DNA from: a bacterium
GTDB taxonomy: Bacteria > Electryoneota > Electryoneia > Electryoneales > Electryoneaceae
Length of the DNA stretch: 64,000 nucleotides
Reading direction: 5' to 3'
NCBI GenBank assembly: GCA_963675295.2
Contig: CAXXKJ010000002.1
Span: 3,872,001-3,936,000 of the forward strand
Positions within the stretch are counted from its first letter, which is position 1; each line of letters starts with the position of its first letter. Made by a program: the position numbers and the translations under genes. Below, one piece after another: positions 9,306 through 51,180 of this stretch. The notes under the pieces are model-generated. The model was given only the letters and a program-made list of their open reading frames with translations. It ran no database searches and was not told the origin of the DNA.

Positions 9306-10244
9306 ATGAACGTGTTGCTGACCGGCGGCGCCGGTTTCATCGGATCGCACATCGCCGACCATTTGCTGGCGGCGGGGCATGACGTTTTCGTGATCGACAA
9401 CTTGTCCAGCGGACGGCGCTCGAATGTGCCGGATGGCGCGGTTTTCCGCGAGATGGACATCCGTTCGGATGAAGTGGAAGCGCTGTGGGCGGAGCACAAG
9501 TTCGACACGATGGTGCATTTCGCGGCGCAGATCAATGTGCGGTCCAGCGTCGAGGATCCGAAGAACGATTGCGACATCAACCTGATGGGCATCCTGAACC
9601 TGCTGGAAGCGGGCCGTCGCCACGGGTTGAAGCGGGTCGTGTTCGCCGGTTCCGGCGGCGCGGCGTTCAATGATGACGTTCCGTTCCCGACGCCGGAAAC
9701 GGTTCCGGGCGTGCCGATGTCGCAGTATGGTGTCGCCAAGATCACGTCCGAACATTATCTGCGCGTCTACCGTGCGGCGTACGGAATCAACTACACGGTG
9801 ATGCGGATCGGGAACGCGTACGGTCCGCGGCAGAACCCGCACGGCGAGGCGGGCGTGATCGCCATCTTCAGCCAGAAGATGCTGAACGGCGAGACGCCGG
9901 TGATTTACGGCACCGGTTTGCAGACGCGTGACTATGTGTTCTGCGAGGATCTGGCGCGGCTGTGCGTGATCGCGCTGGAGAAGATGAATGATCGCATCTA
10001 CCACGCTGGTACGGGCCGTGAGACAAACGTCGTGCAGCTGTACGAAACGATCCGGGACGCGGTCGGTTGCGAGATCGAAGCGGAATTCCAGCCGGCGAAA
10101 ACGGGTGAGGTGATGCGTTCCTGCCTCGACTCCAGCCGTGCAAAGGAAGAGCTTGGCTGGTCGCCGGAGGTCACTTTGGAAGAGGGGCTGCAGAAGACGG
10201 TTGACTTTTTCCGGCGTCAGATGAAAGACCCGGACGCTCGGTAA
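9306..10244 (+). CDS. NAD-dependent nucleotide-sugar epimerase (UDP-Glc/GlcNAc 4-epimerase-like)
   Basis: TGGAGFIGSH, YGVAK (YxxxK), NAYGPRQNPHGEAGV, QTRDYV. Confidence 0.93.
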   Translation: MNVLLTGGAGFIGSHIADHLLAAGHDVFVIDNLSSGRRSNVPDGAVFREMDIRSDEVEALWAEHKFDTMVHFAAQINVRSSVEDPKNDCDINLMGILNLLEAGRRHGLKRVVFAGSGGAAFNDDVPFPTPETVPGVPMSQYGVAKITSEHYLRVYRAAYGINYTVMRIGNAYGPRQNPHGEAGVIAIFSQKMLNGETPVIYGTGLQTRDYVFCEDLARLCVIALEKMNDRIYHAGTGRETNVVQLYETIRDAVGCEIEAEFQPAKTGEVMRSCLDSSRAKEELGWSPEVTLEEGLQKTVDFFRRQMKDPDAR

Positions 10245-10627
10245 AAGATTGTCCGTTGTGACCTGTGTCACGCGAACGTATCAAGTTTTTTCAGACAATT
10301 GCCGACGTAACGTACAGGACCTTGAGTTCCACCCGGATGTTTCGATACACGGTTTTTGGCGCGAAATCGTGAAACCGCATGTATAGCTAGTATCTACGGG
10401 CTTTGACCGGTGTGGGCGGACTGCTCGCACCTTGCAACCTTGATCGCGGCTACAGTGGGCCCACCGTTTGTTCGTTCGTAAGTTGTGGGATTCGTTTCTG
10501 GCGTGAACTCCAAACTTGATGGCATCAAGTTGCAACCGGAACAGGTGTTCCGGGAACGGATCCATGTGAGCATGGGGGACTGCGGTATGAGTCGCAGCCA
10601 CGGGTCCGCAACGTTCGGATCCGCTGT

Positions 10628-12580
10628 ATGATCATGTACATCCACTACATCACCAGCAAGCGCCATATGAGCGCGGTGGTGAAGTACTCCATCGATACGG
10701 TGGCGATCATCCTCGCGTTTTCCATCGCGGCGTTGATCGTGCCCGCCTCGTTGTGGACCGTTCAGACGGTGTGGTCGTTTGTGCTGTACACCGCTGTCCT
10801 GATCGCCTACCGTCATCTCAGCTTTCTGATCCTGCGGAATCATACGTCGATCTGGCGCTATTCAAGTATCGTCGACCTGTACAAGTTGATGCAGGGCGCG
10901 GCGATGGGGTCGTTGCTGTTTTACATCACCGACCTGTTCACGTTGCCGCATGAAGTTCCGCCGCTGGTGCTGTTCATTGAGCTGCTGTTGTTTCTGTTCT
11001 TCAGCGGCGGTGCACGGGTGTTGATCCGCCGCATCTTCGAGTTGTACATCGAGCATCCGGAGGGAACATCCAGCACGCAGAACGTGCTGATTTACGGCGC
11101 GGGGCGTGCGGGTGAACTGCTGATCCGCAACATCAAGACCTCGAAAAACATCGGGATCAACCTCGTCGGGATCGTGGACGATGACCCGTTCAAGCGAGGG
11201 CGTCGCATCCACAACGTGCCGGTGATCGGCACGGGCACCGACATCAAGCGGCTGGCGGACGAGTACAAGATTCACGAGATCTACTTCGCGGTTGCGTCGT
11301 TGAACGGTGTGCAGACGCGGCGTTTACTGAAGCTGATCGATGATCAGGTCCGGGACGGTGTGAAGGTCAAGATCATGCCGGGCCTGAAGGATCTCGTCGG
11401 TGGCCGGGTGACGGTCAATCAGTTGCGTAACGTCGAGATCAAGGACTTGTTGCGCCGCAGTCCGGTCGAACTGGACAAAACGCCGGTCCTGCGGATGATC
11501 AAGGACCAGAAGATCCTGATCGTTGGCGGTGGCGGCAGCATCGGCAGCGAACTCTGCCGGCAGGTGGCTTCGGCCAACCCGAAAGAGCTGCTGATCATGG
11601 ATTCCAGCGAGTTTTCCGTATACCAGATCACGGAACAATTGCTGCAATCCCACCCGCAGGTGCGTGTGCATCCGATCGTGCTGGACGCCTGCCGTGAGCC
11701 GCAGGTACGCAAGATGTTCGAGTTGCATCGCCCGGATCACGTTTTCCACGCGGCGGCGTACAAGCACGTCCCGTTGATGGAAGCGAACGTGATGTCGGCG
11801 GTGTACAACAACGTCAAGGCGACGATTGTGCTCAGCAAGATCGCGGTTGACTTCGGCGTCAAGCGGTTTGTGCTGATTTCATCGGACAAGGCGGTTCAGC
11901 CGACGAACGTGATGGGCGCGACGAAGCGGATGTGCGAGCTGGTAGTGCTGAACGCGAGCGCGGCGCAGTCGACGAAGTTCATGGCGGTGCGGTTCGGGAA
12001 CGTGCTTGGCAGTTCGGGCAGCGTGATCCCGAAATTCAAGGAGCAAATCGCCAAGGGCGGGCCGGTGACGGTCACCCATCCAGAGATCACACGGTACTTC
12101 ATGCTGATCCCGGAGGCGGTTGAATTGGTGCTTCAGGCTGGCGCGATTGGAGAAAATTCGAGCATCTATGTGCTCGACATGGGCGAGCCGATCCGGATCC
12201 ACGATCTCGCCGAATACATGATCAAGTTGTCCGGCCTGACTCCGGGTGAGGACATTAAGATCGACTACACCGGGCTCCGTCCTGGTGAGAAGATGCACGA
12301 ATCGTTGCATCTGGACGGCGAGGAGTGCAACACCAGCATTCCGGACCTGATGATTCTCCGGTCGGCGCATCTGCCGGACGATTCGTTCCTGCAACGTGTG
12401 GACGAATATGCCGAGCAGTGCATGACGATCGACGAGAAGACCGCTCGGGCGCGATTGAAGGAATTCGTGCCGGAATACAGCGCTCCGGTGCCTGCGATCA
12501 AGCTGACCAGCCAGGTTCGTGTTCCGGTTCCGGACACCAATGGTGGCAGCAACGGCGGGCATCATGCCGGGCTGAATTGA
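10628..12580 (+). CDS. Membrane-bound UDP-GlcNAc 4,6-dehydratase (PglF/WbpM/CapD family)
   Basis: Four N-terminal TM helices; LIYGAGRAG, GGGGSIGSEL, HAAAYKHVP, SSDKAV.PTNVMGATKR, VRFGNVLGSSGSV. Confidence 0.95.
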   Translation: MIMYIHYITSKRHMSAVVKYSIDTVAIILAFSIAALIVPASLWTVQTVWSFVLYTAVLIAYRHLSFLILRNHTSIWRYSSIVDLYKLMQGAAMGSLLFYITDLFTLPHEVPPLVLFIELLLFLFFSGGARVLIRRIFELYIEHPEGTSSTQNVLIYGAGRAGELLIRNIKTSKNIGINLVGIVDDDPFKRGRRIHNVPVIGTGTDIKRLADEYKIHEIYFAVASLNGVQTRRLLKLIDDQVRDGVKVKIMPGLKDLVGGRVTVNQLRNVEIKDLLRRSPVELDKTPVLRMIKDQKILIVGGGGSIGSELCRQVASANPKELLIMDSSEFSVYQITEQLLQSHPQVRVHPIVLDACREPQVRKMFELHRPDHVFHAAAYKHVPLMEANVMSAVYNNVKATIVLSKIAVDFGVKRFVLISSDKAVQPTNVMGATKRMCELVVLNASAAQSTKFMAVRFGNVLGSSGSVIPKFKEQIAKGGPVTVTHPEITRYFMLIPEAVELVLQAGAIGENSSIYVLDMGEPIRIHDLAEYMIKLSGLTPGEDIKIDYTGLRPGEKMHESLHLDGEECNTSIPDLMILRSAHLPDDSFLQRVDEYAEQCMTIDEKTARARLKEFVPEYSAPVPAIKLTSQVRVPVPDTNGGSNGGHHAGLN

Positions 12581-12811
12581 GCGGAGTTTTCAGGCTGATT
12601 TTGACGTCAACAAGAAGTGTGGATCATCGTGCGAACTGCCCGCTGATCCGGAAAATCCGAAGAAGTTCCTAGTGTTTCGGGGTTTGCTGGTGAGGCGCAA
12701 GACCGGGCCTCGGATGCATCTTGCATCTTGATCCTGAGCGCTGAGGGTGTTAACCTTCGGAATCATTCATACATTTGTACCGACACAGTACATGTCTGGA
12801 AGGAAATCGAG

Positions 12812-14299
12812 ATGAAGAGGGGTCTCCGTACGGTGCGCGGTTGGAACGGGCCTTTGGCGGCGCTGATGCTGGTCATGTTCCTGCTGATGCTCACGCTGCC
12901 GGCGGCATGGGCTCAAGGCAGCTCGAAAATGGTGTACCTCCGGGGACAGGTTCGTGACCCCGGCGAGCACCCGATCTCCCAGAACCCGACGCTCTACCAA
13001 CTGCTCATCAACCACTCGGGCTTGACGGATGACAGGTTCCGCGAAGAGGTGTACGAATCTCGCGGGGAAGTTGTCCGCACGACAGAGGGTGACGAAGGGC
13101 CGGAGATCATCTCTTTCAGTGTGATCGACGTGTTGAACCAGGAACCGGGCAGCAACATCCCGTTGCAGCCGCAGGACATGGTTCGCATTTACAAGAAAGA
13201 GGTGACGAAGGCTTTTGAGAACTACGTCTGGATCACCGGGTATGTGAAATACCCCGGCCGGTACGAAATGACGCGCGACATGTCGCTCGCTGACCTGCTG
13301 CTGCGGGCTGGTGGGTTCGCGCCGGAAGCGTACATGCTGGACGCCGAGGTGAGCCGTGTCGAGTTGCACGGGATTCCGGGCGATACGTTGAACCGGACGT
13401 TTGACGTTCAGATGCTGCACACGTACAACGTGGTGCAGAACCCGGAAGACGTGCTTTCGTTGATCTACCAGGGCGCGACTCCGGCATCGAACTTCAAGAT
13501 GCAGGCGTACGACCAGGTTCATGTCCGTCGCAGTCCGGATATCACGTTGCCGAACAACGTCGTGATCGAGGGCCAGGTGCTGTACCCGGGGACGTACACG
13601 CTGGAACGGCGTGACGAAACTCTGAGCGAGATCATTGACCGTGCGGGTGGGTTGACATCCGATGCTTACATGGCCGGTGGGCAGTTGCTGCGTGCCGCGC
13701 CTGATGAAGGGCTCGACCTGACCATCGAGGAATTGCGCAAGGAAGTGAAGAACGCGCGCGAGGAGATGGAAATCCGTGAGCGTGCGGTGCGTACCATGTC
13801 CGGTGGCGGTGTTACCGGCAACACGCAGGCGCAGGGTGGCTTCCCGTTGCTGAACAACAGCCGTCTGGGTGATGCGACCGCCGAGATCCTCGAATCGTAC
13901 GAGTTCGCGATCCGCCGTTACCAGGACGCCAAGGAGAACTACGAAGCGGCGATGGCGTTGAAGCGTGGCATGAAGCGCATCAACGTCGACTTCTACGCCC
14001 TGCTGCAGAAGGGTGACATGAAGCAGGACGTCGTGCTGATGGAAGGCGACAAGATCATCATCCCGAAGGCACCGGGCACAGTCACCGTGCTGGGCCAGGT
14101 GAACAACCCGGGTATCTACGATCACGCCCCCGGCAAGACGATGGAATACTACATCATGATCGCCGGTGGAAAAACCGACATCGCGGGCGATGCGGTGCTG
14201 ACGCAACCGTCCGGCTACAGCTACTCGCTCGACTTCCTCAGCAACCCGAATGTGCAGGAAGGCGCGGTGGTTCGTGTGCTGCGTGATCGGCCGAACTGA
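12812..14299 (+). CDS. SLBB-repeat polysaccharide export protein with coiled-coil insert
   Basis: Signal peptide; four SLBB units (G.V..PG.Y...L..L...AGG). Confidence 0.85.
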   Translation: MKRGLRTVRGWNGPLAALMLVMFLLMLTLPAAWAQGSSKMVYLRGQVRDPGEHPISQNPTLYQLLINHSGLTDDRFREEVYESRGEVVRTTEGDEGPEIISFSVIDVLNQEPGSNIPLQPQDMVRIYKKEVTKAFENYVWITGYVKYPGRYEMTRDMSLADLLLRAGGFAPEAYMLDAEVSRVELHGIPGDTLNRTFDVQMLHTYNVVQNPEDVLSLIYQGATPASNFKMQAYDQVHVRRSPDITLPNNVVIEGQVLYPGTYTLERRDETLSEIIDRAGGLTSDAYMAGGQLLRAAPDEGLDLTIEELRKEVKNAREEMEIRERAVRTMSGGGVTGNTQAQGGFPLLNNSRLGDATAEILESYEFAIRRYQDAKENYEAAMALKRGMKRINVDFYALLQKGDMKQDVVLMEGDKIIIPKAPGTVTVLGQVNNPGIYDHAPGKTMEYYIMIAGGKTDIAGDAVLTQPSGYSYSLDFLSNPNVQEGAVVRVLRDRPN

Positions 14300-14323
14300 T
14301 CGGCTGACACGTTGTGAGACTTC

Positions 14324-14351
14324 AAAGCCCCGGAAAATTCCGGGGCTTTTT
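14324..14351. terminator. Bidirectional intrinsic terminator
   Basis: aaagccccggaa-aa-ttccggggcttttt between convergent genes. Confidence 0.85.
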
Positions 14352-14416
14352 CATGGCGTGTGACGGTTCAAGTGCGGACAGCGTTTTTCTTGTTATGCTG
14401 CATTTCAAGTGCGGAC

Positions 14417-14575
14417 AATCCCGACCAGCAAGCTGGTCGGGGCACACGCGAACAGGGGTCATCCGTCATCCCCGTTCCGCGGCAACGAAGCTTCCGCGGG
14501 CATCGTCCCGGCTCCCTCCGCAGAAGCGGTTTCTGCCTCGCGGGCACCATGTGACGGCCACGATCAACCGTGGCA
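14417..14575. repeat. Cluster of four co-oriented REP-like hairpins, each ending in GGCA
   Basis: Family A at 14417-14444; ccgcgg..ccgcgg-gca 14477-14502; ccgc..gcgg-gca 14518-14546; ccacg..cgtgg-ca 14558-14575. Confidence 0.65.
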
Positions 14576-14580
14576 CGTGC

Positions 14581-15630
14581 CTACTCCTCCAACCGCGCCT
14601 TGAGCGTGTCGATGGTCGGGATTGGGGATGGGTCCACCCCCTGCGCCAACGCCAGCCAGTAGCTCAGCCAGTCGCCGATCACGGTCAGCTCCATCATCCG
14701 CGCGAGGGTACTCTGCGTGCGTGGCGTAATGGTCTGCGCGGTCCACCCGGCGGCGCGCGCGAGCTCAGCGGTAAGCGGGATGCGTTTGCGGACATCAGCG
14801 GGTGCGTCCGGATCGTCCAGCAGGATCACGTCGTACCACTGCCCCCACTCCCCGCCTTCGACGTACGGCACCACCTCGTTGTGGTTCATCTCCGGCATCA
14901 CGCCCCATTGCGCCGCACGTTTGGCGTTCTCGTTGATCTGCGCCGCCCAGCGACGTGCGACGGGGACAAGCGTCCCGCTGCCGTAAATCATAGGGTGCTT
15001 CTTCAACGTCTCGGTGAGGAAGCCGTACACCGGGTGGTCGATCCCCTCCGGCGCAACGGACAGCGTGTCGGTCAGTTCGTTGATGACCTGCAGCGTTTCC
15101 TTGTACGCTTCGTCCGTGATCGTAACCCAGCCATGCTGCTGGAACGCACCCAGCGCGGTCGAGAACGCTTCGCCGAGAGCCGCGCGTGGCATGCGGCCAC
15201 CATGCACGGTCCATGTCTCAAAGCCGATCTCCTTCGCCATCGCCGCCAGTTTGCCGCCGGAGGTGAGGGCGTAGAGGGTGCAACCGCGGTCGATTGCTTC
15301 CTGTGCGGTGGCAAGGGTTTCCGCGGTGTTGCCGGAATAGCTGGCGAGGATGACAGCGGTGCCGGAGCCTGCCCATTTCGGCAACGGGCCGCCGCGATGA
15401 ACGGTCAACGGGAACGGCGCGGAGTCGCTGAGCAATCCCGCGAGGAAGTCGCCGCCGATGGCGCTGCCGCCCATGCCGGCCCAGATGACGGCGGATGGAA
15501 CGGGTGCGTCCGGGTAAGCTTTCGCCGCTTCCTGTCCCTGCGCCCAGCCGGTGCGGACCTGATCGGGCCAGGAGAGGATGTCGGCGTGCATATTTCGAGC
15601 ATCCACATCCCGTTTCTCGCTGAACTCCAT
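14581..15630 (-). CDS. Bifunctional phosphoglucose/phosphomannose isomerase (SIS family)
   Basis: GMGGSAIGG, SYSGNTAET, MPRAA, RW..QINENAK, PEMNHNE, GVDP; GGAGG RBS. Confidence 0.93.
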   Translation of the reverse strand: MEFSEKRDVDARNMHADILSWPDQVRTGWAQGQEAAKAYPDAPVPSAVIWAGMGGSAIGGDFLAGLLSDSAPFPLTVHRGGPLPKWAGSGTAVILASYSGNTAETLATAQEAIDRGCTLYALTSGGKLAAMAKEIGFETWTVHGGRMPRAALGEAFSTALGAFQQHGWVTITDEAYKETLQVINELTDTLSVAPEGIDHPVYGFLTETLKKHPMIYGSGTLVPVARRWAAQINENAKRAAQWGVMPEMNHNEVVPYVEGGEWGQWYDVILLDDPDAPADVRKRIPLTAELARAAGWTAQTITPRTQSTLARMMELTVIGDWLSYWLALAQGVDPSPIPTIDTLKARLEE

Positions 15631-16026
15631 CCTTCCTCCGAGATTTGTATGACAATTGTGTGTCTCTTGCACTCATCTTCCGCGCTGCAACGGATTCCTG
15701 GTTTTCATCCAGGCTCGTTCCAGCGGAGTGGTAAGCTACGGAAATCGTGTACGCCAAGGTGCGGCAAACTCAGTCCTCTCACAGTCTCTCAGCGATTCCG
15801 ATTTGATGCCGAGTTGACCGGTCTGTGCCGTATGCGTATGTTTGCAAGCCCTAACTTTGATCGATACGTGAGAATCAGCCTGCGAGAGGGTGGAATTGAA
15901 ACGCTCGTTTAAAACTCGCGATTGAAAGCGTTTCCGGCGGGTTGTAGGTCCGTCAACGAGAAGTAGCGGGTCTGTTGAAAACGGGGTCAGCGAAAAGCAG
16001 CGTCTTGTCCGGTGCTGCCGGATTCG

Positions 16027-24295: not shown

Positions 24296-24564
24296 TACCA
24301 CGGACTGAAGTCCGTGGTAAGAACAACGAGCAGCTATAATTACCACGGACTTTAGTCCGTGGTTGGTCCGTGATACGCAGGATGTCACAGTGAACAAGTT
24401 GTCGTCCAGTGAAGGGTGAATTCCTGAGACGGATGTCATCCAGAACTTGGTGTCATCCTGAACGTGGTGAAGGATCTCGTAGTTCACTGGCGGAAAATCC
24501 CGACCAGCAAGCTGGTCGGGGCAGACTCAAATGATCATCCACGACATGAATGTCGTGGGCATGT
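24296..24564. repeat. Mixed REP-like cluster in inter-PKS spacer
   Basis: taccacggac-tgaa/ttta-gtccgtggt x2 (24296, 24341); tgtcatcctgaacgtggtgaaggatct (24451); family A (24496-24523); 32-bp element at 24533-24564 identical to 58611-58642. Confidence 0.8.
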
Positions 24565-40715: not shown

Positions 40716-41634
40716 ACCGATGCAGGAACGGCATGGACAGCGCAGTTACCAGGTACTTGTCACGGGGCCGCATCTTGCGGGTCCACTCGTCATCCATCCG
40801 GAGTGTGACTTCCCCTTCCTGGAAGCGGTTCGGATTCCCCGAACACGTGTGATCCTTGCCAAGATAGACGGTATGGTCGTCCACGAAAGGCAGGTTCTCC
40901 GTGCTCTCGCCGAAACGGCGCAGGATACGGATGATCGCTTTTCGCGGCTGGCGGACAAAATCCTCGTAGCGCATGAAGACGTAGCGTTCCGGGCGTTTTC
41001 CCCAAGTCGCCTCGGTGGCAACATTCCACGAATCCCACAGCAACGTGGAGAAAATCGGACCGTGCTCATCCATCGGCTGCATCGTGCCGGTATCCGGCTG
41101 CAATTTGCGGCGCAGCCATGAGAACGATACCGCGCGCGGATCACGCACCAGATGAACGACGTAGAGATCGATTTCCTTGAGAATGTCGAGCGTGAAGGCG
41201 TAGGTCGGGAACTTGGATGAATCGACGATAACATTGCAGCCGAAATGGCTCTGGATCGACTTGTAGAGCAGGATCAGGTTGGTCAGGTATTCACGGGCAT
41301 TTTCCCACAGCGCCCGCCGTGTCGCGCCCGGCACGGCCAGCCCGGCGAGGTGGCGGGTACGGGTCAGCCGGTCACGCAGCTGGATCATCCGGTTCGGATC
41401 GACGGCATCAAACCCCCCGAACGCGTCCTCGACAATCGCCTGCCATTCGGGACAGTCGCGGAAGTGTTCGCCGCAGCCACAGAGGTGGTTGCCGATGAAA
41501 TTCCGGTCCCAGATGTAGCGAACCTCACCGACGGAGTTGAAGCCGGGGATCTGGCCGAGGATTCGGTCCAGGATCGTGGTTCCGCTGCGACCCCAGCCGG
41601 TGATGTACAGGACTTTAACGTTCGAATTTTTCAT
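40693..41634 (-). CDS. Sulfotransferase ST5 (CHST / Gal-GlcNAc-6-O-ST-like motifs)
   Basis: GWGRSGTTIL, CGCG....C..W, VDSSK, HLVRDPRAV..S, RYEDF. Confidence 0.9.
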   Translation of the reverse strand: MKNSNVKVLYITGWGRSGTTILDRILGQIPGFNSVGEVRYIWDRNFIGNHLCGCGEHFRDCPEWQAIVEDAFGGFDAVDPNRMIQLRDRLTRTRHLAGLAVPGATRRALWENAREYLTNLILLYKSIQSHFGCNVIVDSSKFPTYAFTLDILKEIDLYVVHLVRDPRAVSFSWLRRKLQPDTGTMQPMDEHGPIFSTLLWDSWNVATEATWGKRPERYVFMRYEDFVRQPRKAIIRILRRFGESTENLPFVDDHTVYLGKDHTCSGNPNRFQEGEVTLRMDDEWTRKMRPRDKYLVTALSMPFLHRYGYPIFV

Positions 41635-41642
41635 GGTATCAA

Positions 41643-43406: not shown

Positions 43407-45632
43407 CTAAGCGGTTTCCTTCTCGCTTCGTGCCTTTTCCGTGTAGTACTTCTTCGCACCGTAGTATTCGTTGAAGAACCGGCCGTAATAGTACTTGCTG
43501 CTCAGCTTGTTGACCTTGATGCCGTTGAAGACGACGCCGAAGAGGCGGCCATCCACCTGGTCTACCTGGGCGATACAGCTGCGCAGGTCGGCCATCGTGT
43601 TCTTCTCCATCAGCGCGACCAGCACCAGACCGTCCGACTTCGAGGTCAGGATCTTGGCGTCGATGGCGACGTGGATCGGCGGCGCGTCAAGGATGACGGT
43701 GTCGTATTCCTGCTTCGCGCGGGCGATGAACCGGTTCATCGACTCGGAGGCGAGCAGGTCGGACGGGCTCGGCGTACGTGAACCGGCCGGTACGACGGTC
43801 AGGTTTTCGTGCATCGTCTTACGGAACACTTCGTCCCATTCGCACTGTCCGACGAGCAGGTCGGACAGGCCCGGGGTACGTTCCACATCGAAGAGGCGGT
43901 GCTGATCCGGGACGCGGAGGTCGCAGTCCACCAGCAGCGTCTTCTTGCCGCCCATGGCGAAGGCCAGCGACAGGTTGCAGCTGGTCAGCGTCTTACCGTC
44001 CGCATGGTCGGCCGACGAAATCGTGAAGCATTCCAGCGGCTTGTCGACGGCGGAGAAGACGAGGCCCGTACGCAGGGAGCGGTAACTCTCGACGGACGGA
44101 TCCTGCGGCTGCATGTACGCGATAATCGGGTACGGCTTGCCGCTGCTACTGATCACCGGCTTGTGACCGTTACCGTGCGTAAACTCAACCTTCTTCGCGT
44201 TGATGAAGGGGATCATGCCGAGCACGCTGACGTTGAGCTCCTTCTGGATCTCGTCGGTGCTCTTGATGGTGTTGTCGAACAGGTCCGCGAGGTACGCACC
44301 GAAGGACGCGACCATCAGCGCGACCATCACGCTCATGATCAGGCGAAGCATCGTCTGCGGGTCTTCCGGCTGTTCCGGGATATACGGCGGGTCGATCACC
44401 TTGACGCCGCCGGTTTCGGAGGCGGCCTGGACGCGAGTTTCCTCGCGTTTGGTCATCATCAGGTCGTACGTCTGCTGCAGCACGGCACGCGAACGCTGCA
44501 TGCGGGAATACTCGAGGGCTGATTCGAGCAGGTCCGGATGCTGGCGCTGGTAGTCTTTGATCTGCGCGTTGACGTAATCAATCTTGTTGCGCAGGTTGGC
44601 GAGCTGCACTTCCGCTTCGGTGAGGCGGGTAATGACCGACGCCAGCTTGGCCCCGCGTTCCGCCTTGAGGCTGGAGCTTCCGGCGTTGGATGTCATCGCC
44701 GTGACGAGATTCTGCTGCGCGACGTCGATCTGGTTCAAGATCGATTCGCGTTCCGGGCTGTCTTCCGGGAGCTGCACAAGGCGTGCTTCCAGATTCTGCA
44801 GGTCCAGGCGAATCTGCTTGACCAGCGGGTTGTCCATCCCGCCGAGCTCAGCGGCTGAACTCTCGGTCAGGTTGCGGTATTCTTCGCTGTAGGTCTTGTG
44901 GTTCAGCTCAGTCAATGACAGCTGGACCTCAGCCTCGGCCAGTTCATCCTGTAAAGCATAGAGACGTGAGTAAACGCTGCTTTCGAGCAGGTTGCCGGGA
45001 GTGATCTGGTTCTTTTCCTCGAACTGTTTCACTTCCCGTTCAACGATCTCCATCTCTTCGCTGAGCAGCGCAAGCTGTTGGTCGAGGAAGACAATGGTAT
45101 TGTTCAACTCCTGGACCTGCAAGCTGGCCGATCGTGCCTGGAACACGTCCACAGCGTGCTTTACCAGTGCGTAGGCGGCAGTCGGGTCGGACAACTCGGC
45201 GGTGATATCGAGGAAGGATCCGTTCTTCTGGATGTTAAAATCAACGGCCTTGTTGACTTCCTTCTCGATGGTTGGTTTTGCTACCGGCTCATAGCCAGCC
45301 GCATCCAGCGATTCTTCGAGCTGTCGCAGGAAGAATTCACTATGGATGATGGAGTTGAAGTAGTCCTGGGGGACTACGGTGCTCATCCCGGGAATCAACG
45401 TGCTCGTGGCCATGGCCTGCGGGCTCGTCTGCACACCGAACATCAGCGTGGCCTTGGAGATGTACACCGGGGGCAGGCGCAGGACGATAAACACGCCCGC
45501 GGCCAGCGTCACGACAAAGAACACGACGAACAGGACGAGGTGCTTGAGCAGCGCCCCCATTACCCGTTCGTAAATGTCACGCGCGCTGAGCGACTCAGCC
45601 TGCTGGAACAGATCGGTACTCTTGGTATTCAA
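43407..45632 (-). CDS. wzc: Wzc-type polysaccharide co-polymerase / BY-kinase
   Basis: Two TMs flanking a coiled-coil periplasmic domain; ESYRSLRT, Walker A DGKT, A' VDCDLR, B ILDAPP, C-terminal Tyr cluster. Confidence 0.93.
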   Translation of the reverse strand: MNTKSTDLFQQAESLSARDIYERVMGALLKHLVLFVVFFVVTLAAGVFIVLRLPPVYISKATLMFGVQTSPQAMATSTLIPGMSTVVPQDYFNSIIHSEFFLRQLEESLDAAGYEPVAKPTIEKEVNKAVDFNIQKNGSFLDITAELSDPTAAYALVKHAVDVFQARSASLQVQELNNTIVFLDQQLALLSEEMEIVEREVKQFEEKNQITPGNLLESSVYSRLYALQDELAEAEVQLSLTELNHKTYSEEYRNLTESSAAELGGMDNPLVKQIRLDLQNLEARLVQLPEDSPERESILNQIDVAQQNLVTAMTSNAGSSSLKAERGAKLASVITRLTEAEVQLANLRNKIDYVNAQIKDYQRQHPDLLESALEYSRMQRSRAVLQQTYDLMMTKREETRVQAASETGGVKVIDPPYIPEQPEDPQTMLRLIMSVMVALMVASFGAYLADLFDNTIKSTDEIQKELNVSVLGMIPFINAKKVEFTHGNGHKPVISSSGKPYPIIAYMQPQDPSVESYRSLRTGLVFSAVDKPLECFTISSADHADGKTLTSCNLSLAFAMGGKKTLLVDCDLRVPDQHRLFDVERTPGLSDLLVGQCEWDEVFRKTMHENLTVVPAGSRTPSPSDLLASESMNRFIARAKQEYDTVILDAPPIHVAIDAKILTSKSDGLVLVALMEKNTMADLRSCIAQVDQVDGRLFGVVFNGIKVNKLSSKYYYGRFFNEYYGAKKYYTEKARSEKETA

Positions 45633-45766: not shown

Positions 45767-46783
45767 TCAATTGTTGTCCAGCCGGTCGATACGCAGGTAG
45801 ATCAGGTATGCGCTGGCGATGACGCTGACGTCACGCAGCATTTGAAGCATCCTGTCCCACGTAAAGAACGGATCGTACAGGGAAACGATGATCACATCGC
45901 CGCCGCTGACCGGCGGGATCTGCGCGATCTGCGCTTCCTCGATAATTTCATCCAGGTCCAGTTCCGTCTCCCGGTATACGCCCGGCGACGTCATGAACAG
46001 GTGCTTGATGTTCGACCTGTCGGCATCGGGACGGAACCCGCCGGCGAGCAGCACCATGTTGAGCACGTTCGAATCGGCGTAGGGGACGTAGTTTCCCGGT
46101 TTGTTAACCCAACCTACAACCATCACCGACGAGTTGTTGGTGATCGAGGGCACAATAATGATGTCATCTTCCTGGAGCTTCGGCAGATCTTTCAGATCAC
46201 CACTTGCGAGAAACTCGCGGAGGTTGGCGTCAATGCGCTTCCACTCGGTTTCGCCGCTGGCGCTGGTTCCGGTGGGCCGCAGGATGTGTACCCCGCTCGG
46301 ATCGGCGTGATCCGCTGGACCGCCGGCGAGAGAAATTGCCGATTGCACGTCCGTGTTCACCGGAATCTGCACGAGGCCCGGCTGGCGGACCTGTCCGAGT
46401 ACCTGCACCTTGATGGTGTAGTTCTCCGGGATTTCGACCACTACGACGGGGTTATCCATGTATCGTCGCAGAATGGTGACCAGCAAGGTCTGCATCTCGG
46501 TGGTCGTCATGCCGACAACCGGGATTTCAGTGATGTACGGGTACGGCACGGTGCCGTCATCCCGGACTTTGAGCAACCGGTTGAATTCAGGAGCTCCCAG
46601 CACACTGATCTGCAGGTGATCTCCGACATCGATGGTGCGCGCGGCTCGCGCATCCGGAATCAGGGTTAACGCCATGACCAAGGCCAGGAACAGCACGGCC
46701 ATGACCCGTTTTGCAGGCGCCCCAGACAATCCTCTACCCCTCGTCAATCTCAGCTCCTGTTCATGCGGTCCGTGTAAGCTCAA
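45767..46783 (-). CDS. wza: Wza-like polysaccharide export protein (Poly_export + SLBB); alternative start at 46702
   Basis: GD.L.I.V, V..DG.V.YP, G.V..PG repeats, C-terminal amphipathic helix; immediately upstream of wzc. Confidence 0.85.
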   Translation of the reverse strand: MSLHGPHEQELRLTRGRGLSGAPAKRVMAVLFLALVMALTLIPDARAARTIDVGDHLQISVLGAPEFNRLLKVRDDGTVPYPYITEIPVVGMTTTEMQTLLVTILRRYMDNPVVVVEIPENYTIKVQVLGQVRQPGLVQIPVNTDVQSAISLAGGPADHADPSGVHILRPTGTSASGETEWKRIDANLREFLASGDLKDLPKLQEDDIIIVPSITNNSSVMVVGWVNKPGNYVPYADSNVLNMVLLAGGFRPDADRSNIKHLFMTSPGVYRETELDLDEIIEEAQIAQIPPVSGGDVIIVSLYDPFFTWDRMLQMLRDVSVIASAYLIYLRIDRLDNN

Positions 46784-46891: not shown

Positions 46892-48580
46892 TCAGAGATT
46901 ATAGGTAAAACCAGCCAGGAACAAGGCGAGAGTTTCGTTTTCCACCCGCGTGAGCCCGGCTCGTGTTTGTAACACCAGATTTTCCAATGGTTCCCACTCA
47001 ACCGCCACCTCTCCCCGCCAAGCCGTTGTCTCATCTCCGGCAAGGAGTGGATAGCTTGTGTCGCGTGCCCGTACCGGCACCAGCTCGTAGATGTTGCCGC
47101 CGACCGGATCTTCACCCGGAATTGACTCACCGTGACGCAGCCGTTGCCCCATGGCGGTGACCTGCCATGTTCCGCCGAATTTCTGGTTGAAACTCAGTGT
47201 CAGGGCGTCGCTGTTCGGTGGAATCGGCGATCCGAGCGCAGTTCCATTGTGGGCGTAAACACTCACTGCAAACCAGTGGGAATACACATACGGCCTAAGT
47301 CGAGTAAGGTGCAGTTGCAGCATGCTTCCGCGCAACCCCACTGGCTCGATAACGTCCATCCCCAGCGCAAAAGCCGTACGGTTATGCAACTGGTTGGTAA
47401 ACAGGCCACTCATCGAGGTCTCGTCCAGCAATCCCTCGAAATAGAAAGCCCATCCACGCAGAGGCTGCACCCGCAAATCCACACCCCAGGCGACGTTGTC
47501 ATCCCGATCCTGATGGTGGTTTTCCGACCAGAAGATGTTCAACGGAATCATGTAACCGATTTCCGGGTCCCGTTCCGCGTAAATCACCGTCTCGCTGAGC
47601 CCGACCTGCAGCCAGGGCCTGGGATTGACTTCAAGCCGGTGCGCCGCGAACCACTTCTGATTCACCACCTTGCGCCGTTTGCCACTCGGTGAAACGTAGT
47701 AGATCTCATCTTCGACCGGATACGGATCCAGCCGGGCATGAAAGTAATCAAACACAAGCCATGGTTTCACCTGCGCTCTCAGTTGCAGGTAGAGGTACGC
47801 CGGCGCTTCTCCGGAGACGATCAGTCCACGATCCAGCGACGGGCCGCGTTCCATCCGGTCCCGTCCGACGCCAACGTCCACAAACTCGCTGTGGTATTCG
47901 AGGTACGCCAGGGTCTCATCGAACGATGAGGATGCCCCGGCCGGCGACACCGAGGCGACGTACCCCGGAGTCGGGCTGTAAGCTCCGCGTGCTTTGTTTT
48001 GATTGTATTCGGCGGTGTCGGTAAAACGCACTCCGGCGGTCCACGAGTTGCCGAGTGCCGCCTGCACGTCGATACCGATCACCGAGCGCAGCAACGGATC
48101 GTCGTTGTAGTCCTCGTCGTAGATGCCGTGCCAGGCGATGATCGGGTCGACGGTGAAGCTGAGCTCATCCTTCCGCATGCCGTAGAGGTGTGCGCCGTGC
48201 TTGAACAGTGGCGATCCAGAGGGGATGACGTTGTCCCAGCGGGTTTGGTCCGGCACCAGGGACTCGTTCTGGCCGTACACGGCGATCTCGCTCAGTAACT
48301 CGTCGAGTTCCGCCTGTTCGCTGGGTGGCAGTTTATCGCGGTTGGTGTTACACTCCCGCAGTCGTTCGATCAAAACCGGCAGGGATTCGGGACGAACCGT
48401 GGGTGGTGGTTGTTCGGTGACGCCGTAGAGCCAGGCTCGGTTGAGGAACTCGTACACGGAATGATCAGCGTACAATCCGGCTTGCGCGGGGACATTCAGC
48501 GCAACGAGAGAGCACGCGAGCAGGATCGCGGACACAAAAAGCCGCTGGATCTGGATCATTCTCTTCGTATGATTCGGCAC
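46892..48580 (-). CDS. Capsule assembly Wzi-family outer-membrane beta-barrel
   Basis: Signal peptide; GR....GP....LI.S..AP, AHRLE.NP, SETVIY, DN, LG.PI.PNS; C-terminal FTYNL beta-signal. Confidence 0.75.
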   Translation of the reverse strand: MPNHTKRMIQIQRLFVSAILLACSLVALNVPAQAGLYADHSVYEFLNRAWLYGVTEQPPPTVRPESLPVLIERLRECNTNRDKLPPSEQAELDELLSEIAVYGQNESLVPDQTRWDNVIPSGSPLFKHGAHLYGMRKDELSFTVDPIIAWHGIYDEDYNDDPLLRSVIGIDVQAALGNSWTAGVRFTDTAEYNQNKARGAYSPTPGYVASVSPAGASSSFDETLAYLEYHSEFVDVGVGRDRMERGPSLDRGLIVSGEAPAYLYLQLRAQVKPWLVFDYFHARLDPYPVEDEIYYVSPSGKRRKVVNQKWFAAHRLEVNPRPWLQVGLSETVIYAERDPEIGYMIPLNIFWSENHHQDRDDNVAWGVDLRVQPLRGWAFYFEGLLDETSMSGLFTNQLHNRTAFALGMDVIEPVGLRGSMLQLHLTRLRPYVYSHWFAVSVYAHNGTALGSPIPPNSDALTLSFNQKFGGTWQVTAMGQRLRHGESIPGEDPVGGNIYELVPVRARDTSYPLLAGDETTAWRGEVAVEWEPLENLVLQTRAGLTRVENETLALFLAGFTYNL

Positions 48581-48952: not shown

Positions 48953-49732
48953 TTGCGGGCAGCCGATTCGATAAAGCTGTTGGGTGTAAAGGTCAGCAGC
49001 GTATCGCTGGATCAAGCTGTAGGTGTGATCGAGCAATGGATCCGGAAATCAGAAGCGAATTATGTCACCTGCACCGGCATGCACGGTGTGATGGAGAGCC
49101 AGGCAGATGAGGCGATCCGTCAAATTCACAACAAGGCGGGAATGGTTGTCCCCGACGGCATGCCGCTGGTGTGGATGAATCATTATCATGGCCGCCGCCA
49201 CGTGACCCGTTGTTACGGTCCGGATTTGTTCCTGGCGGTGCTTCAGCGCAGTGTGGAGAATGATGCGGGTTTCAAGCACTTCTTCTACGGTGGCGCTGAG
49301 GGTGTGCCGGAGATGTTGGCAGAGCGAATGCGTGAGAAATTTCCCGCTCTGCAGGTTGCAGGTACCTGGTCTCCTCCGTTCCGTCCATTGACGCCGGAAG
49401 AAGATGAACAGGTAGTGAAGATGATCCGCGATTCAGGTGCGGACATCGTGTGGATTGGCCTGAGCACACCGAAACAGGAGCGGTGGATGGCTGACCACGT
49501 GGAGAAGTTGGGCCGGCCCGTGCTGATCGGGGTTGGCGCAGCGTTTGATTTTTATACCGGGAGAGTGACCCAGGCCCCGCGTTGGATTCAGCGGAGCGGG
49601 TTGGAGTGGTTCTTCCGGATGGTGATGGAGCCACGGCGCTTATGGAAACGGTACTTAAAGAACGTCCCGTTATTCCTGATACTGGTCATTCGGGAAATGG
49701 CCACAGGAAAACGCCAGTACCCCCACCGGTGA
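48953..49732 (+). CDS. WecB/TagA/CpsF (GT26) glycosyltransferase
   Basis: VPDGMP, R.YGPDL, PPFR, IGL.TPKQE.W, GVGAAFDF, GLEW..R...EPRRLWKRY. Confidence 0.95.
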   Translation: MRAADSIKLLGVKVSSVSLDQAVGVIEQWIRKSEANYVTCTGMHGVMESQADEAIRQIHNKAGMVVPDGMPLVWMNHYHGRRHVTRCYGPDLFLAVLQRSVENDAGFKHFFYGGAEGVPEMLAERMREKFPALQVAGTWSPPFRPLTPEEDEQVVKMIRDSGADIVWIGLSTPKQERWMADHVEKLGRPVLIGVGAAFDFYTGRVTQAPRWIQRSGLEWFFRMVMEPRRLWKRYLKNVPLFLILVIREMATGKRQYPHR

Positions 49733-51180
49733 TCAAGCGGCAGACGGCATCGAGTTCCTCGCGGAATTTCATGCGGATTCTGTTGGTTGTTATCGACATG
49801 GTTACGGTCTATGCAGGGATCGTCCTCTCCCTCTACGTTGCCCGATTGCTGAACTTGTTTGACGCCGGCATTCCGGTCAAGGATCTGGCTGAAGGTGTGT
49901 TGCGTCCTATTCCCAGGGACCATGTTCTCGTCTACGGGGCGATTTCGTCCGTGCTCGCGGTCATCATCATGTGGTGGCAGGGCACGTACAACCCCAGTCT
50001 TAATCACATGAAGCTGGACGGTGACCGTCGTTTCATCCGTTCGTTGACGATGGTCATGCTGGTAACCTTCCCGCCGTTCCTGTATGTGCAGAACCAGTTT
50101 GACACGCGTGGGATGCTGACCGCCGCGATTGTGGTCGTTCCGGTATTGCTGATCCTGCAGAAAACGCTGTCCGTCGCGTTCATTTCGAAGCATTATGACC
50201 GTCCTGTACGCACCCACAAGCTGTTGATTGTCGGCGCGCACAAGGAGGGTCCGTACGTTCTGCGGCAAGCGTTATCCTGCTGGGACCCGGGCTACCTGCC
50301 GGTGGGCTTCCTGTCGAAAGATCCGGTGCAGAACGGGGATTACATCGAAACCGAGAGCCGGGGCCTGGTGGGCTCGGTGCCTGTGCTCGGGGATTACAGC
50401 CAGCTGGAACACTTCATCAAGCGGCACGCGATCGAGGAAGTCTGGATTAACGATCCGGAGATGCCGCAGGATGAGATCGTTGACATTTTGCGGCTATGCG
50501 AGCATCGCGGTGTGGTTACCAGCATGCTGCCGAGTATCGGCCGTATCCCGACGATGTCGGTGACCGCGACCTATGCCGGTGGGCAGGTGTTGCTGCGTGA
50601 ACGCCGGGCGCCGGAACGCATCTACTACGACAAGATGAAGCGCGCGGTGGACTTCATCGCGTCCACCCTGATGCTGATCGGCCTGTCGCCGATTTTGATC
50701 CTGGTCGCAATCTGGGTCAAACTCGACAGCAAGGGGCCGGTGTTCTTCTCGCAGGAACGTGTTGGCAAGAACGGCAAGCCGTTCCGGATGTTCAAGTTCC
50801 GCAGCATGCACGTGAACGCGCCGAAGTATGCTGTCAGTCCGAGCAGCAAGCTCGATCCGCGGATCACACGATCGGGCCGTTTCCTCCGGAAGAGTTCGCT
50901 GGACGAGTTGCCGCAGCTGTTCAACGTGTTCAAGGGCGACATGAGCCTCGTCGGCCCGCGTCCGGAGATGCCATTCATCGTTGACCAGTACACACGGTTC
51001 CAGCGTGCACGGCTGCAGGTGAAGCCGGGCATTACGGGGCTGTGGCAGATCTCGGCGGACCGTTCGATCGCCATCCACGACAACCTGGACTACGACCTGT
51101 ACTACATCCAGAACCGTTCGCTGACAACGGACATGGTGATTCTGTGGCGCACGGTGTGGTTTGCGATTCATGGGATCTAA
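49729..51180 (+). CDS. Priming polyprenyl-phosphate glycosylphosphotransferase (WcaJ/WbaP-like); alternative start at 49771
   Basis: N-terminal TMs; KR..D, GPVFF.Q.R.G, KFRSM, SLDELPQ, MSLVGPRPE, KPGITG.WQ; GTGA overlap with GT26 stop. Confidence 0.93.
   Translation: MIKRQTASSSSRNFMRILLVVIDMVTVYAGIVLSLYVARLLNLFDAGIPVKDLAEGVLRPIPRDHVLVYGAISSVLAVIIMWWQGTYNPSLNHMKLDGDRRFIRSLTMVMLVTFPPFLYVQNQFDTRGMLTAAIVVVPVLLILQKTLSVAFISKHYDRPVRTHKLLIVGAHKEGPYVLRQALSCWDPGYLPVGFLSKDPVQNGDYIETESRGLVGSVPVLGDYSQLEHFIKRHAIEEVWINDPEMPQDEIVDILRLCEHRGVVTSMLPSIGRIPTMSVTATYAGGQVLLRERRAPERIYYDKMKRAVDFIASTLMLIGLSPILILVAIWVKLDSKGPVFFSQERVGKNGKPFRMFKFRSMHVNAPKYAVSPSSKLDPRITRSGRFLRKSSLDELPQLFNVFKGDMSLVGPRPEMPFIVDQYTRFQRARLQVKPGITGLWQISADRSIAIHDNLDYDLYYIQNRSLTTDMVILWRTVWFAIHGI

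Follow-up and report, generated by a model that had tools for sequence, protein, structure and literature searches.

A probable Pfa-related lipid synthase beside a predicted sulfated polysaccharide locus in the Electryoneaceae: two possibly separable cell-envelope modules

The DNA considered here (64,000 nucleotides from a bacterium of the Electryoneaceae, genome G000, hereafter the window) juxtaposes a predicted secondary-lipid synthase and a predicted sulfated exopolysaccharide (EPS) pathway, and the best explanation, which we adopt tentatively, is that of two separable cell-envelope modules that are co-inherited and separately transcribed, with products that would be independent of each other. 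All 20 genes named by a first-pass annotation of this region were found through an NCBIfam scan and a Pfam scan of 40 window stretches (whole ORFs and two sub-regions of the PKS genes), with E values of the family matches spanning 1e-8 to 1e-110, so these assignments are not due to chance. The single correction to that list concerns the bifunctional PGI/PMI gene, which resides on the minus strand (14581-15672; bact-PGI_C, E 9.4e-39), divergent from PKS1, the plus-strand ORF at 14314-15912 being rejected as a shadow ORF with no family match.

The core of the first module is a pair of plus-strand megasynthase genes. PKS1 (16269-24185) is composed, by Pfam, of an N-terminal domain (residues 1-335), a FabK-type ER, KS, AT, a PQ-rich linker, two ACPs and a KR, and PKS2 (24531-31910), by Pfam and folds, of KS, AT, a P-rich linker of about 430 aa, a PKS-type DH, an Sfp-type PPTase, an NRPS-type PCP and a TE; the full reductive cycle, dedicated PPTase and release module earlier ascribed to the pair (KS, AT, ACP, KR, DH, ER) are all present. 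PKS1 scores 1163.2 bits against the PfaA model of NCBIfam (TIGR02813; cut-off 1010.1), its ER scores 48.8 bits against Pfam NMO (cut-off 28), with residues 339-625 matching FabK structures at E 1e-13, and its tandem ACPs display two LGIDS sites. The DH region of PKS2 has no Pfam match, and its identity is backed by homologues with PF14765 and by an AlphaFold model of the DH-PPTase region (pLDDT 76.8), for which Sfp and the double-hotdog dehydratases of PKSs are structural matches, the DH part resembling CurH, CurJ and PpsC in structure comparison. The PPTase itself is recognized by Pfam ACPS (E 8.8e-11), has the Sfp fold (TMt 0.68) and shows G-K-P and F-S-L-S-H (h-S-h-x-H) motifs; the motifs x(G/D)xP and hShxH are assigned to Types M-T, including the Azotobacter ars Type P, in the relevant passages of PMC3098273. 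The PCP-TE is nearest to AB3403 and EntF. A motif search found intact catalytic motifs in both KS, both AT and both ACP domains, the PCP and the TE; the KS of PKS2 retains its Cys, and the adjoining AT has GHSxG. The closest wider relatives are KS-AT-DH-PPTase proteins of approximately 1560-1690 aa with PF14765 and PF01648. Judging from these sequences, PKS1 and PKS2 probably form a Pfa-related "secondary lipid" iterative type I FAS/PKS, all three features tested (a PfaA-like protein, an FMN-type ER, the PPTase motifs) being present. In such a synthase, priming of both ACPs and of the terminal PCP would fall to the fused PPTase, malonyl loading to the ATs and elongation to the two KS domains, with KR, DH and ER carrying out full reduction. 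The likely product is a long acyl chain, mostly saturated and possibly hydroxylated, which would pass to the PCP and then be off-loaded by the TE, either as a free acid or to some nucleophile.

The second module is dominated by a minus-strand run. Starting next to PKS2, it comprises the sulfotransferases ST1 (32204-33127; Sulfotransfer_1, E 7.9e-18) and ST2 (33124-34053; 39% identical to ST1), a GT4 glycosyltransferase (34277-35500; Glycos_transf_1, E 1e-29), a Wzy-type polymerase (35511-37061; Wzy_C, E 2.5e-17), a right-handed beta-helix protein, lyase or epimerase-like (37079-38857; Beta_helix, E 6e-22), three further sulfotransferases, ST3 (38912-39799; Sulfotransfer_1, E 3.6e-19), ST4 (39801-40715; Sulfotransfer_1, E 7e-19) and ST5 (40693-41634; of the Sulfotransfer_3 type by Pfam), a Wzx flippase (41643-43193; Polysacc_synt, E 3.5e-21), the PCP-2a co-polymerase/tyrosine kinase Wzc (43407-45632; GNVR and AAA_31), the OPX protein Wza (45767-46783; Poly_export and SLBB) and a Wzi-like outer-membrane protein (46892-48580; Caps_assemb_Wzi, 43 bits versus a cut-off of 30.1). 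On the plus strand, these are followed by WecG/TagA of GT26 (48953-49732; E 2.8e-61) and a priming polyprenyl-phosphate sugar-phosphate transferase (49582-51180; Bac_transf, E 1.4e-68, and CoA_binding_3). The priming transferase, Wzx, Wzy, Wzc and Wza all exceed their Pfam cut-offs, and Wzi is present as well. The five sulfotransferases within the cluster are of the PAPS type, the PAPS-loop motifs being identified by regular expression in ST1-ST4 (K-A-G-T-S in ST1) and by eye in ST5, and the solved chains nearest to ST1 are 3rnl, HS 3-O-sulfotransferases and cytosolic SULTs. With 13 PF00685 matches, four priming transferases and three Poly_export loci, sulfated-glycan genes are common in this genome. 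The locus appears to encode a Wzx/Wzy-dependent pathway for a synechan-like polysaccharide, whose sulfation is predicted from the genes. Because the pathway employs no more than three transferases alongside five sulfotransferases of the PAPS type, a short-repeat, heavily sulfated polymer is proposed, which the minus-strand run, WecG and the priming transferase would produce and deliver via Wzc, Wza and Wzi. A 6-deoxy-amino-sugar precursor may be supplied by two plus-strand genes upstream of the PKS pair, for a GalE-like NAD-dependent sugar epimerase/dehydratase (9156-10244; Pfam Epimerase, E 2.8e-58, with an NCBIfam galE score under the model cut-off) and a PglF/CapD-type membrane UDP-sugar 4,6-dehydratase (10628-12580; Polysacc_synt_2, E 1.6e-110, and CoA_binding_3). 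Between these and PGI/PMI is a gene for a secreted, OPX-like SLBB-repeat protein (12728-14299, plus strand; Pfam SLBB and SLBB_2, no Poly_export domain), with a signal-peptide-like N-terminus after M29.

As to transcription, the PKS pair is, from its sequence context, a predicted transcription unit of its own, apart from the convergent sulfotransferase operon. It is separated by 596 bp from the divergent PGI/PMI gene, and the 293-bp convergent spacer between the stops of PKS2 and ST1 holds a hairpin with a 13-bp stem (32125-32154), terminator-like on both strands. Terminator-like hairpins across the region are no more numerous than chance predicts (13 found versus 14.6 expected), so it is only the position of this one that is informative. 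Within the ST3-Wzx run, intergenic gaps do not exceed 54 bp, and a break of 223 bp separates ST2 from GT4.

Both the synteny and its break are shown directly, as are gene content, domain order and folds. The linkage of the PKS pair to wzx, wzy and sulfotransferase genes, which the first-pass annotation had proposed to test in other genomes, and the usual absence of which it had named as evidence to the contrary, holds in both congeners assembled past PKS2 (G002 and G003), but not in the sister genus (G007), in which the orthologous PKS genes lie away from EPS genes. A third congener (G001), whose contig ends 403 bp past PKS2, is compatible with adjacency. The entire PKS and EPS arrangement is maintained at 62-68% PKS2 identity, with identities of 86-98% for Wzc and 85-99% for ST5 in G001-G003, even though EPS loci usually vary between species; the beta-helix protein was not found at the G003 locus. 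In G007, the 9.3 kb downstream of PKS2 contain unrelated genes (for a DUF6544 protein, an uncharacterized ORF, a ferredoxin/pyridine-nucleotide oxidoreductase and multihaem cytochromes), and orthologues of ST2 and ST1, at 64% and 67% identity, are found on a different contig, where the next 10.8 kb are unrelated DNA; they are the only sulfotransferase genes of this EPS type found in this genome, and neither Poly_export nor Wzc was matched. What the congeners and G007 share is the block epimerase-PglF-SLBB-PGI-PKS1-PKS2, with PglF orthologues of 65-98% identity.

Outside these genera, a line of thiotemplate enzymes also occurs in G006 and G010; on the RpoB tree, the clade of the congeners and G007, G006 and G010 are three separated lineages. 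In G006, a different, NRPS line encoding an FkbH-like(?)-PCP protein, C-A-PCP-ST (with a CurM-like ST domain), C-A-PCP-TE and a PPTase is placed between divergent WecG/PGT genes and Wzi-Wza-Wzc-Wzx-Wzy, heading the orthologous Wzi-Wza-Wzc operon in the same direction, its PPTase ORF overlapping the Wzi ORF. The PCP-TE of this line shares 32% identity with the one in PKS2, while the G006 Wzc is 40% identical to the window Wzc and the G006 ST5 orthologue 50% identical to ST5; in G010 ST5 is represented by a fragment. ST5-type genes are thus found in G000-G003, G006 and G010. Genes of the ST1/ST2 type are present at 44% identity or above in all six PKS-positive genomes, and at this level in none of the ten PKS-negative genomes of the family, in which a single match (34%) contains a stop codon. 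The genera interleaved between the three lineages had no match for either the thiotemplate line or the EPS-type genes. The PKS/NRPS line and both sulfotransferase types follow a patchy, correlated distribution, resting on three lineages of metagenome-assembled genomes (MAGs) that are 86-96% complete.

These patterns also lend partial support to a coupled system, as the first-pass annotation had it, in which the acyl chain from the PKS, most simply via the terminal TE, would be moved onto a Wzy-glycan repeat unit, the finished chain or a short glycan, the product being either a sulfated polysaccharide with a lipid anchor or a glycolipid bearing sulfate. That no described system combines a PKS with a sulfated Wzx/Wzy locus, as also claimed, agrees with the open-access literature text, in which none was found. 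Covalent coupling is possible, though we consider it doubtful. In its favor are the adjacency kept in G002 and G003, the embedding of the related line in the G006 operon, the co-occurrence of thiotemplate line and EPS-type sulfotransferases in three separated lineages, and the sugar-precursor genes and SLBB protein that adjoin the PKS even in G007. Along with the persistence of the arrangement and the tracking of ST1/ST2 with the PKS, the G006 and three-lineage observations count against independent modules, as does the fact that a TE can transfer an acyl group to a sugar, with Pks13 as a precedent. On the other side, PKS2 has no linkage to ST1 in G007, the PKS and the sulfotransferase operon are convergent, separate units, and the number and incompleteness of the MAG lineages limit the weight of co-occurrence. 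No FAAL, PapA-type or MBOAT acyltransferase or MmpL gene was detected by Pfam among the 40 window stretches, leaving the scanned window without a dedicated acyltransferase, FAAL or lipid transporter that would join acyl chain and glycan. In Wzi-type capsules, moreover, Wzi itself retains the polymer at the cell surface, and a lipid anchor is not required. The proposal of a PKS-lipidated sulfated glycan is only partly supported, by neighborhood and distribution but not by linkage in the sister genus, shared transcription or a coupling enzyme.

A sulfolipid, in which ST1/ST2 would O-sulfate a hydroxy fatty acid or alcohol made by the PKS, with the Wzy glycan as a separate product, seems rather improbable. 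The restriction of ST1/ST2-type genes, at 44% identity or above, to PKS-positive genomes would fit this, and so would the position of ST1 and ST2 as a small PKS-proximal unit set off by the gap to GT4, the resemblance of ST1 to hydroxysteroid and bile-salt SULTs, and the recurrence of CurM-type sulfotransferases at three of the five scanned PKS loci of relatives, these being G010, with an ACP-ST didomain (PDB 4gbm, E 3.6e-64), and the metagenome loci L042 and L043, with a convergent Sulfotransfer_3 gene 42-44% identical to the G010 ST. However, ST1-ST5 are not of the CurM type, having no significant BLASTP match to the G010 ST, the G000 genome contains no CurM-type ST, the G007 ST2-ST1 pair is not beside the PKS, and a complete KR-DH-ER set need not leave a hydroxyl free to be sulfated. 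Least probable is a left-flank module, by analogy with heterocyst glycolipid synthesis, in which the PKS, epimerase, PglF-like dehydratase and secreted SLBB protein would make an exported glycolipid-like envelope lipid independently of Wzx/Wzy: it is suggested by the block shared by G001-G003 and G007, in which epimerase, PglF and SLBB are the only neighbors common to both genera, by full-length SLBB orthologues limited to the five genomes with a fused PKS2 (G000-G003 and G007) and by the absence of any Poly_export or Wzc match in G007, but the two genera form one clade (support 100/100), so the synteny amounts to a single inheritance, the block includes no glycosyltransferase, PGI/PMI is a housekeeping gene with one match in each of the 16 family genomes, in G012 the PglF orthologue shares a contig with a Wzc homologue, the two lying some 15 kb apart, and G010 has no match to the SLBB protein.

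Among known megasynthase systems, the mycobacterial sulfolipid-1 pathway (Pks2, PapA, Stf0, MmpL8) is rejected: the NCBIfam Pks2 model covers only the KS-AT part (422 bits versus a cut-off of 2400), and no PapA/condensation-like or MMPL families occur in the 40 window stretches, the Condensation domain being absent genome-wide. The ACP-ST-TE off-loading of CurM and olefin synthases (Ols) is echoed in G010, L042 and L043, which carry CurM-type sulfotransferases, and PKS2 ends in a PCP-TE homologous to the one that follows ACP-ST in G010, but in the PKS pair of the window the CurM-type ST and the C-A domains are lost; with no such ST recognized by Pfam in PKS2, beside the terminal carrier and TE, and the G010 ACP-ST query matching only the PCP in the G000 genome, this mechanism is rejected. 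Capsule export in the WcbR/RkpA systems is of the ABC-transporter (Kps) type, and Pfam scans detected no ABC capsule transporter at the window locus, whose export genes are Wzx/Wzy/Wzc/Wza. These systems resemble the window in that a type I PKS/FAS is encoded amid genes for making and exporting a capsule, but wcbR and rkpA are, in the relevant passages of PMC3908369, single PKS genes inside a capsule cluster, versus two Pfa-type genes with PPTase and TE, and a capsule PKS of this kind is likewise rejected. The swf operon of a sponge symbiont also pairs an iterative FAS-like PKS (SwfA) with a sulfotransferase (SwfB), but as described in the same passages (PMC3908369) it consists of a single KS-AT-DH-ER-KR-ACP module and a sulfotransferase fused to a reductase, with no polysaccharide genes. 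The PUFA synthase PfaABCDE shares with the window pair the PfaA cut-off passed, tandem ACPs, an FMN-type ER and a dedicated PPTase; the pair is devoid of PfaC-type KS-CLF, PfaB and the FabA-type DH/isomerase (no Pfam match to FabA), its DH is of the PKS type by fold and it has a TE release module, so a polyunsaturated product is unlikely and a canonical PUFA synthase is rejected.

For the polysaccharide, a precedent is synechan of Synechocystis PCC 6803, whose xss cluster is, in the portions of PMC8205485 that describe it, a Wzx/Wzy/PCP-2a EPS cluster with sulfotransferase genes; by that account, the window has five sulfotransferases versus two and three transferases (the phosphosugar primer and two GTs) versus eight, and, unlike xss, it includes an OPX and a Wzi of its own as well as a neighboring megasynthase. 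For the PKS pair, the ArsABCD phenolic-lipid system as a whole is rejected, as no chalcone/stilbene-synthase match to its type III PKS genes, flanked by FAS genes, was found among the 40 window stretches. The ArsA/ArsD FAS of Azotobacter vinelandii, a Type P secondary lipid synthase, nevertheless provides the closest characterized logic, being, by description rather than alignment, a two-protein iterative FAS/PKS for long saturated chains, a general architecture shared by the KS-AT-DH-PPTase relatives. In the sections of PMC4824345 that deal with it, PPTase activity resides in the second protein, as in PKS2; the window pair differs in an ER fused to the N-terminus of PKS1 and in the extra NRPS-type PCP-TE release module of PKS2.

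The anatomy of the locus that the first-pass annotation had set out holds, apart from the strand of one gene. Forty stretches of the window, comprising whole ORFs and two sub-regions of the PKS genes, were scanned with Pfam, and these scans, with an added NCBIfam scan, recover every gene that had been listed; PGI/PMI is present, but on the minus strand (ORF 14581-15672, bact-PGI_C, E 9e-39), the plus-strand ORF at 14314-15912 having no family match and being rejected as a shadow ORF. Genes for an epimerase, a PglF-like dehydratase and an SLBB protein come first, on the plus strand, followed by PGI/PMI on the minus strand and by PKS1 (16269-24185) and PKS2 (24531-31910) on the plus strand; then comes a minus-strand run of ST1, ST2, GT4, Wzy, beta-helix, ST3, ST4, ST5, Wzx, Wzc, Wza and Wzi genes (ST1 to ST5 being sulfotransferases), and the right end is formed by WecG and a priming transferase, both on the plus strand. 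The genome that carries the window (G000:C2:3872001-3936000) is of 4.8 Mb, in two contigs.

As to the surroundings of this block, window 1800-3704 has a GC content of 0.448, against about 0.58-0.61 around it, and contains a DUF5131 gene next to an ORF of 385 aa that weakly matches wHTH; identity to the congener G001 is 94% for the former but only 26% for the latter, and the stretch has the look of a small island, variable or mobile. An AccC-like biotin carboxylase gene (4215-6206, minus strand), which precedes the PKS block by a few genes, keeps its position in the congeners G001-G003, and its called ORF is longer at the N-terminus by about 150 residues that have no match in the orthologues; the gene is possibly a source of malonyl-CoA, and most likely a housekeeping gene. 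Two multihaem c-type cytochrome genes stand side by side at 58760-61762. Among the relatives, in-frame stop codons interrupt otherwise full-length matches, TGA in PGI of G002 (G002:C2:176041-177120) and in Wzc of G006, another of the genomes compared (G006:C5:41334-43502), and TAG in PglF of G003 (G003:C10:8855-10792); errors in the assembly, pseudogenes or recoding may account for them.

PKS1 (2638 aa) begins with a conserved domain (residues 1-335, window 16269-17270, plus strand) that gives no Pfam match and no PDB sequence match and is found in all orthologues, including that of G010, from a third PKS-bearing genus; a duplicate of the enoyl reductase (ER) was considered for residues 1-330, and BLASTP against the latter was not significant. 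The domain precedes a FabK-type FMN ER (Pfam, with a PDB match), KS, AT, a linker, two ACPs and KR, and PKS1 passes the NCBIfam PfaA subfamily model (1163 bits, cut-off 1010). PKS2 (2459 aa; orthologues 2242-2459 aa) consists of KS, AT, a Pro-rich linker, a region with no Pfam match, an ACPS-family PPTase, an NRPS-type PCP and a TE. For the region with no Pfam match and the PPTase, a joint model was built on an alignment of 11 sequences (pLDDT 76.8), and Foldseek likened its N-terminal part to the double-hotdog PKS dehydratases CurH, CurJ, CurK and PpsC (TM on target 0.5-0.6) and its C-terminal part, with a TM of 0.68, to Sfp-type PPTases; PF14765 and PF01648 cover the same stretch (DH-PPTase) in relatives of 1560-1690 aa. 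Each KS and each AT has its catalytic motifs intact, as have the carrier domains and the TE. Domains, folds and motifs therefore bear out the full reductive cycle, the PPTase for self-priming and the release module with which the pair had been credited. The PKS-type dehydratase, along with the absence of a CLF, argues for a product that would be a saturated or hydroxylated long chain rather than a PUFA, as judged from sequence and model. The low-complexity linkers are very long in both synthases, with repeated PGYPPQG-like units: that of PKS1 (window 21186-21820, plus strand, residues about 1640-1850) has roughly 210 aa, 57% of them Pro or Gln, and that of PKS2 (window 27559-28850, plus strand, residues about 1010-1440) has roughly 430 aa, 25% of them Pro; both differ in length among orthologues. 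The ACP arrays of Pfa synthases have Ala/Pro linkers, beside which those of the window are unusual. Elsewhere in the genome, a second type-I-like KS (E 4e-64) lies at G000:C2:1438777-1439574, within a 1080-aa ORF, and no NRPS condensation domain was found genome-wide.

A profile of the DH-PPTase-PCP-TE part, searched against a library of 1.84 billion representatives (E 0.001 or better), gave 107,683 matches, nearly all on NRPS-like PCP-TE, and among the best 150 of these only two proteins cover the whole module, P0003, which is that of the sister genus (G007), and P0005. Another group of proteins, of about 1550-1820 aa, stops at the PPTase, and its named members are from Synechococcus, Fontimonas and Solimonas. 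Within the phylum, the DH-PPTase part is present in 6 of 79 genomes, belonging to 3 of 55 genera (E 1e-20 or better); a pattern scan of genome contigs returned five genomes only, all already known carriers, and a metagenome scan returned distant relatives only, of 37% identity or less. Two metagenome loci (L042, L043) pair a PfaA-like gene with one for KS-AT-DH-PPTase; an alpha/beta hydrolase, an unknown ORF and an SDR come next, and the set is closed by a convergent Sulfotransfer_3 gene, 42-44% identical to the sulfotransferase of G010, while no sulfotransferase was found among the ORFs scanned in L044 and L045. With CurM-type sulfotransferases in G010, L042 and L043, predicted sulfation is thus a recurrent theme in this PKS family, by way of CurM-type enzymes, of which the window has none.

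The sulfotransferases of the window belong instead to the second half of the locus, where the minus-strand run, together with WecG and the priming transferase, makes up a complete Wzx/Wzy/Wzc/Wza(/Wzi) system (Pfam), with only three transferases versus five sulfotransferases. ST1 and ST2 are paralogous (39% identity), as are ST3 and ST4 (37%), and ST5 is of the Sulfotransfer_3 type; among solved structures, ST1 is closest to a bacterial sulfotransferase (3rnl), to heparan-sulfate 3-O-sulfotransferases and to cytosolic SULTs. Counted genome-wide, PF00685 has 13 matches, priming transferases number four and Poly_export loci three.

Of the readings considered, we tentatively favour as the likeliest one in which two envelope modules can be separated: a secondary-lipid synthase like ArsA/ArsD, which would release a long acyl chain, and a pathway like that of synechan, which would make a highly sulfated polysaccharide, the two being inherited together in part of a single Calditrichota family. 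The first-pass annotation had proposed instead that the acyl chain is joined to the sulfated glycan, and the arrangement of the genes speaks against such covalent coupling: an upstream region of 596 bp separates the PKS pair from the divergent PGI/PMI, and PKS2 is convergent to ST1, with 293 bp from the PKS2 end to the ST1 stop codon and a 13-bp-stem hairpin in between (over the whole region, terminator-like sites are no more numerous than expected by chance). The scans of 40 window stretches revealed no gene for a FAAL, an acyltransferase or a lipid transporter. The sister genus, which forms one clade with the window genus (RpoB tree, support 100/100), presents a further argument. G007 retains the order epimerase-PglF-SLBB-PGI-PKS1-PKS2, but unrelated genes fill the 9.3 kb after PKS2, and its ST2 and ST1 orthologues (64% and 67% identity) are at the start of a different contig, and in the 10.8 kb beyond them only a T9SS-tail protein matches a window gene; no match to Wzc or Poly_export was found in this MAG, at 91% completeness, which does not prove absence. 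Multihaem cytochromes among the post-PKS genes of G007 were tried as orthologues of the window set (58760-61762) that would mark a clean indel, and no relation was detectable.

The proposed synteny of the PKS pair with wzx, wzy and sulfotransferase genes, broken in G007, does hold in two congeners, G002 (PKS2 68% identical) and G003 (62%), where the whole arrangement is kept, the G003 locus lacking GT4 and the beta-helix gene and having one additional ST1 copy; the G001 contig stops 403 bp past PKS2. More distant genomes also favour coupling. One example is G006, whose Wzc is 40% identical to that of the window (other family matches beyond the window genus, 34% or less), with Wzi, Wza, Wzx, ST5, WecG and PGT at 33-52%. 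Here a thiotemplate line (L058:4985-18466; L059, G006:C5:24985-48824) heads the Wzi-Wza-Wzc-Wzx-Wzy operon co-directionally, as four genes between the divergent WecG/PGT and Wzi that encode a 1331-aa protein with a central PCP as its sole recognisable domain, a C-A-PCP-sulfotransferase with the CurM-like sulfotransferase domain fused after the PCP, a C-A-PCP-TE (PCP-TE 32% identical to that of PKS2), and a PPTase, whose ORF overlaps that of Wzi. An FkbH/HAD-IIIC-like assignment of the first protein was a weak lead (score 0.79, below evidence level). Another example is G010, whose PKS is split into ER-KS-AT, KR and KS-AT-DH-PPTase, followed by a free-standing ACP-ST didomain (CurM ST, PDB 4gbm, E 3.6e-64; 38% identity to the ST domain of G006) and a C-A-PCP-TE (L026, G010:C19:13807-19603). 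Genes resembling ST1/ST2 (about 43% identity) are present in G010 too, as is an ST5 fragment adjoining WecG (56%) and PGT (49%); the ends of contigs C19 (PKS-NRPS), C68 (ST1-like) and C128 (ST5-WecG-PGT) do not overlap, and the contigs are too short to reveal linkage. On the RpoB tree the window and sister genera, G006, and G010 (sister of G009, support 100/99) are set apart by genera with no match, with two changes needed for the PKS label and three for the thiotemplate label, which suggests correlated gain or loss of the thiotemplate line and the EPS genes, as far as one unrooted gene tree, MAGs and three lineages can tell. Weighing the G006 operon and this distribution against the separation in G007 and the fact that no coupling enzyme was found, we consider covalent coupling somewhat unlikely.

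A broader version, a family-specific Calditrichota thiotemplate lineage functionally wired to one Wzi-Wza-Wzc sulfated-polysaccharide type, appears slightly less probable still. Such a lineage would take the PKS form in the window, sister and G010 genera and, in G006, that of an NRPS with a CurM-like sulfotransferase domain, PCP-TE being common to all modules and a PPTase present in each, and an acyl or acyl-peptidyl cap or anchor would be joined to the sulfated glycan. A sulfolipid made by the PKSs with ST1/ST2 is improbable, and a glycolipid made by the PKSs with the left-flank module more doubtful yet.

Even if the modules are uncoupled, as in the reading of two separable modules, the rare fused KS-AT-DH-PPTase-PCP-TE protein stands out, a Wzy locus with five sulfotransferases per three-transferase repeat unit is notable, and the evolutionary series from G010 (PKS, ACP-ST and NRPS) and G006 (NRPS-ST within the EPS operon) to the window (PKS and PCP-TE) shows swapping of off-loading modules. 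Coupling, if real, would let bacteria make heavily sulfated, glycosaminoglycan-like polymers anchored by a lipid, and would be a new means by which megasynthases feed the Wzx/Wzy pathway; a wired lineage would define a class of lipidated, sulfated bacterial glycoconjugates undescribed so far.

Compared with known systems, curacin and olefin synthases off-load by ACP-ST-TE, whereas G010 has ACP-ST and then C-A-PCP-TE. The Type M-T motif group of PPTases of Shulse and Allen is reported to take in the Azotobacter ars fatty-acid synthase (PMC3098273; PMC4824345), and the motifs of the PKS2 PPTase fall there likewise. Sulfated EPS clusters of the Wzx/Wzy type are already described for synechan (PMC8205485) and reported for Vibrio and Cobetia. 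No described system combining a PKS with sulfated EPS was found in the open-access literature, for Calditrichota or elsewhere, in agreement with what had been supposed.
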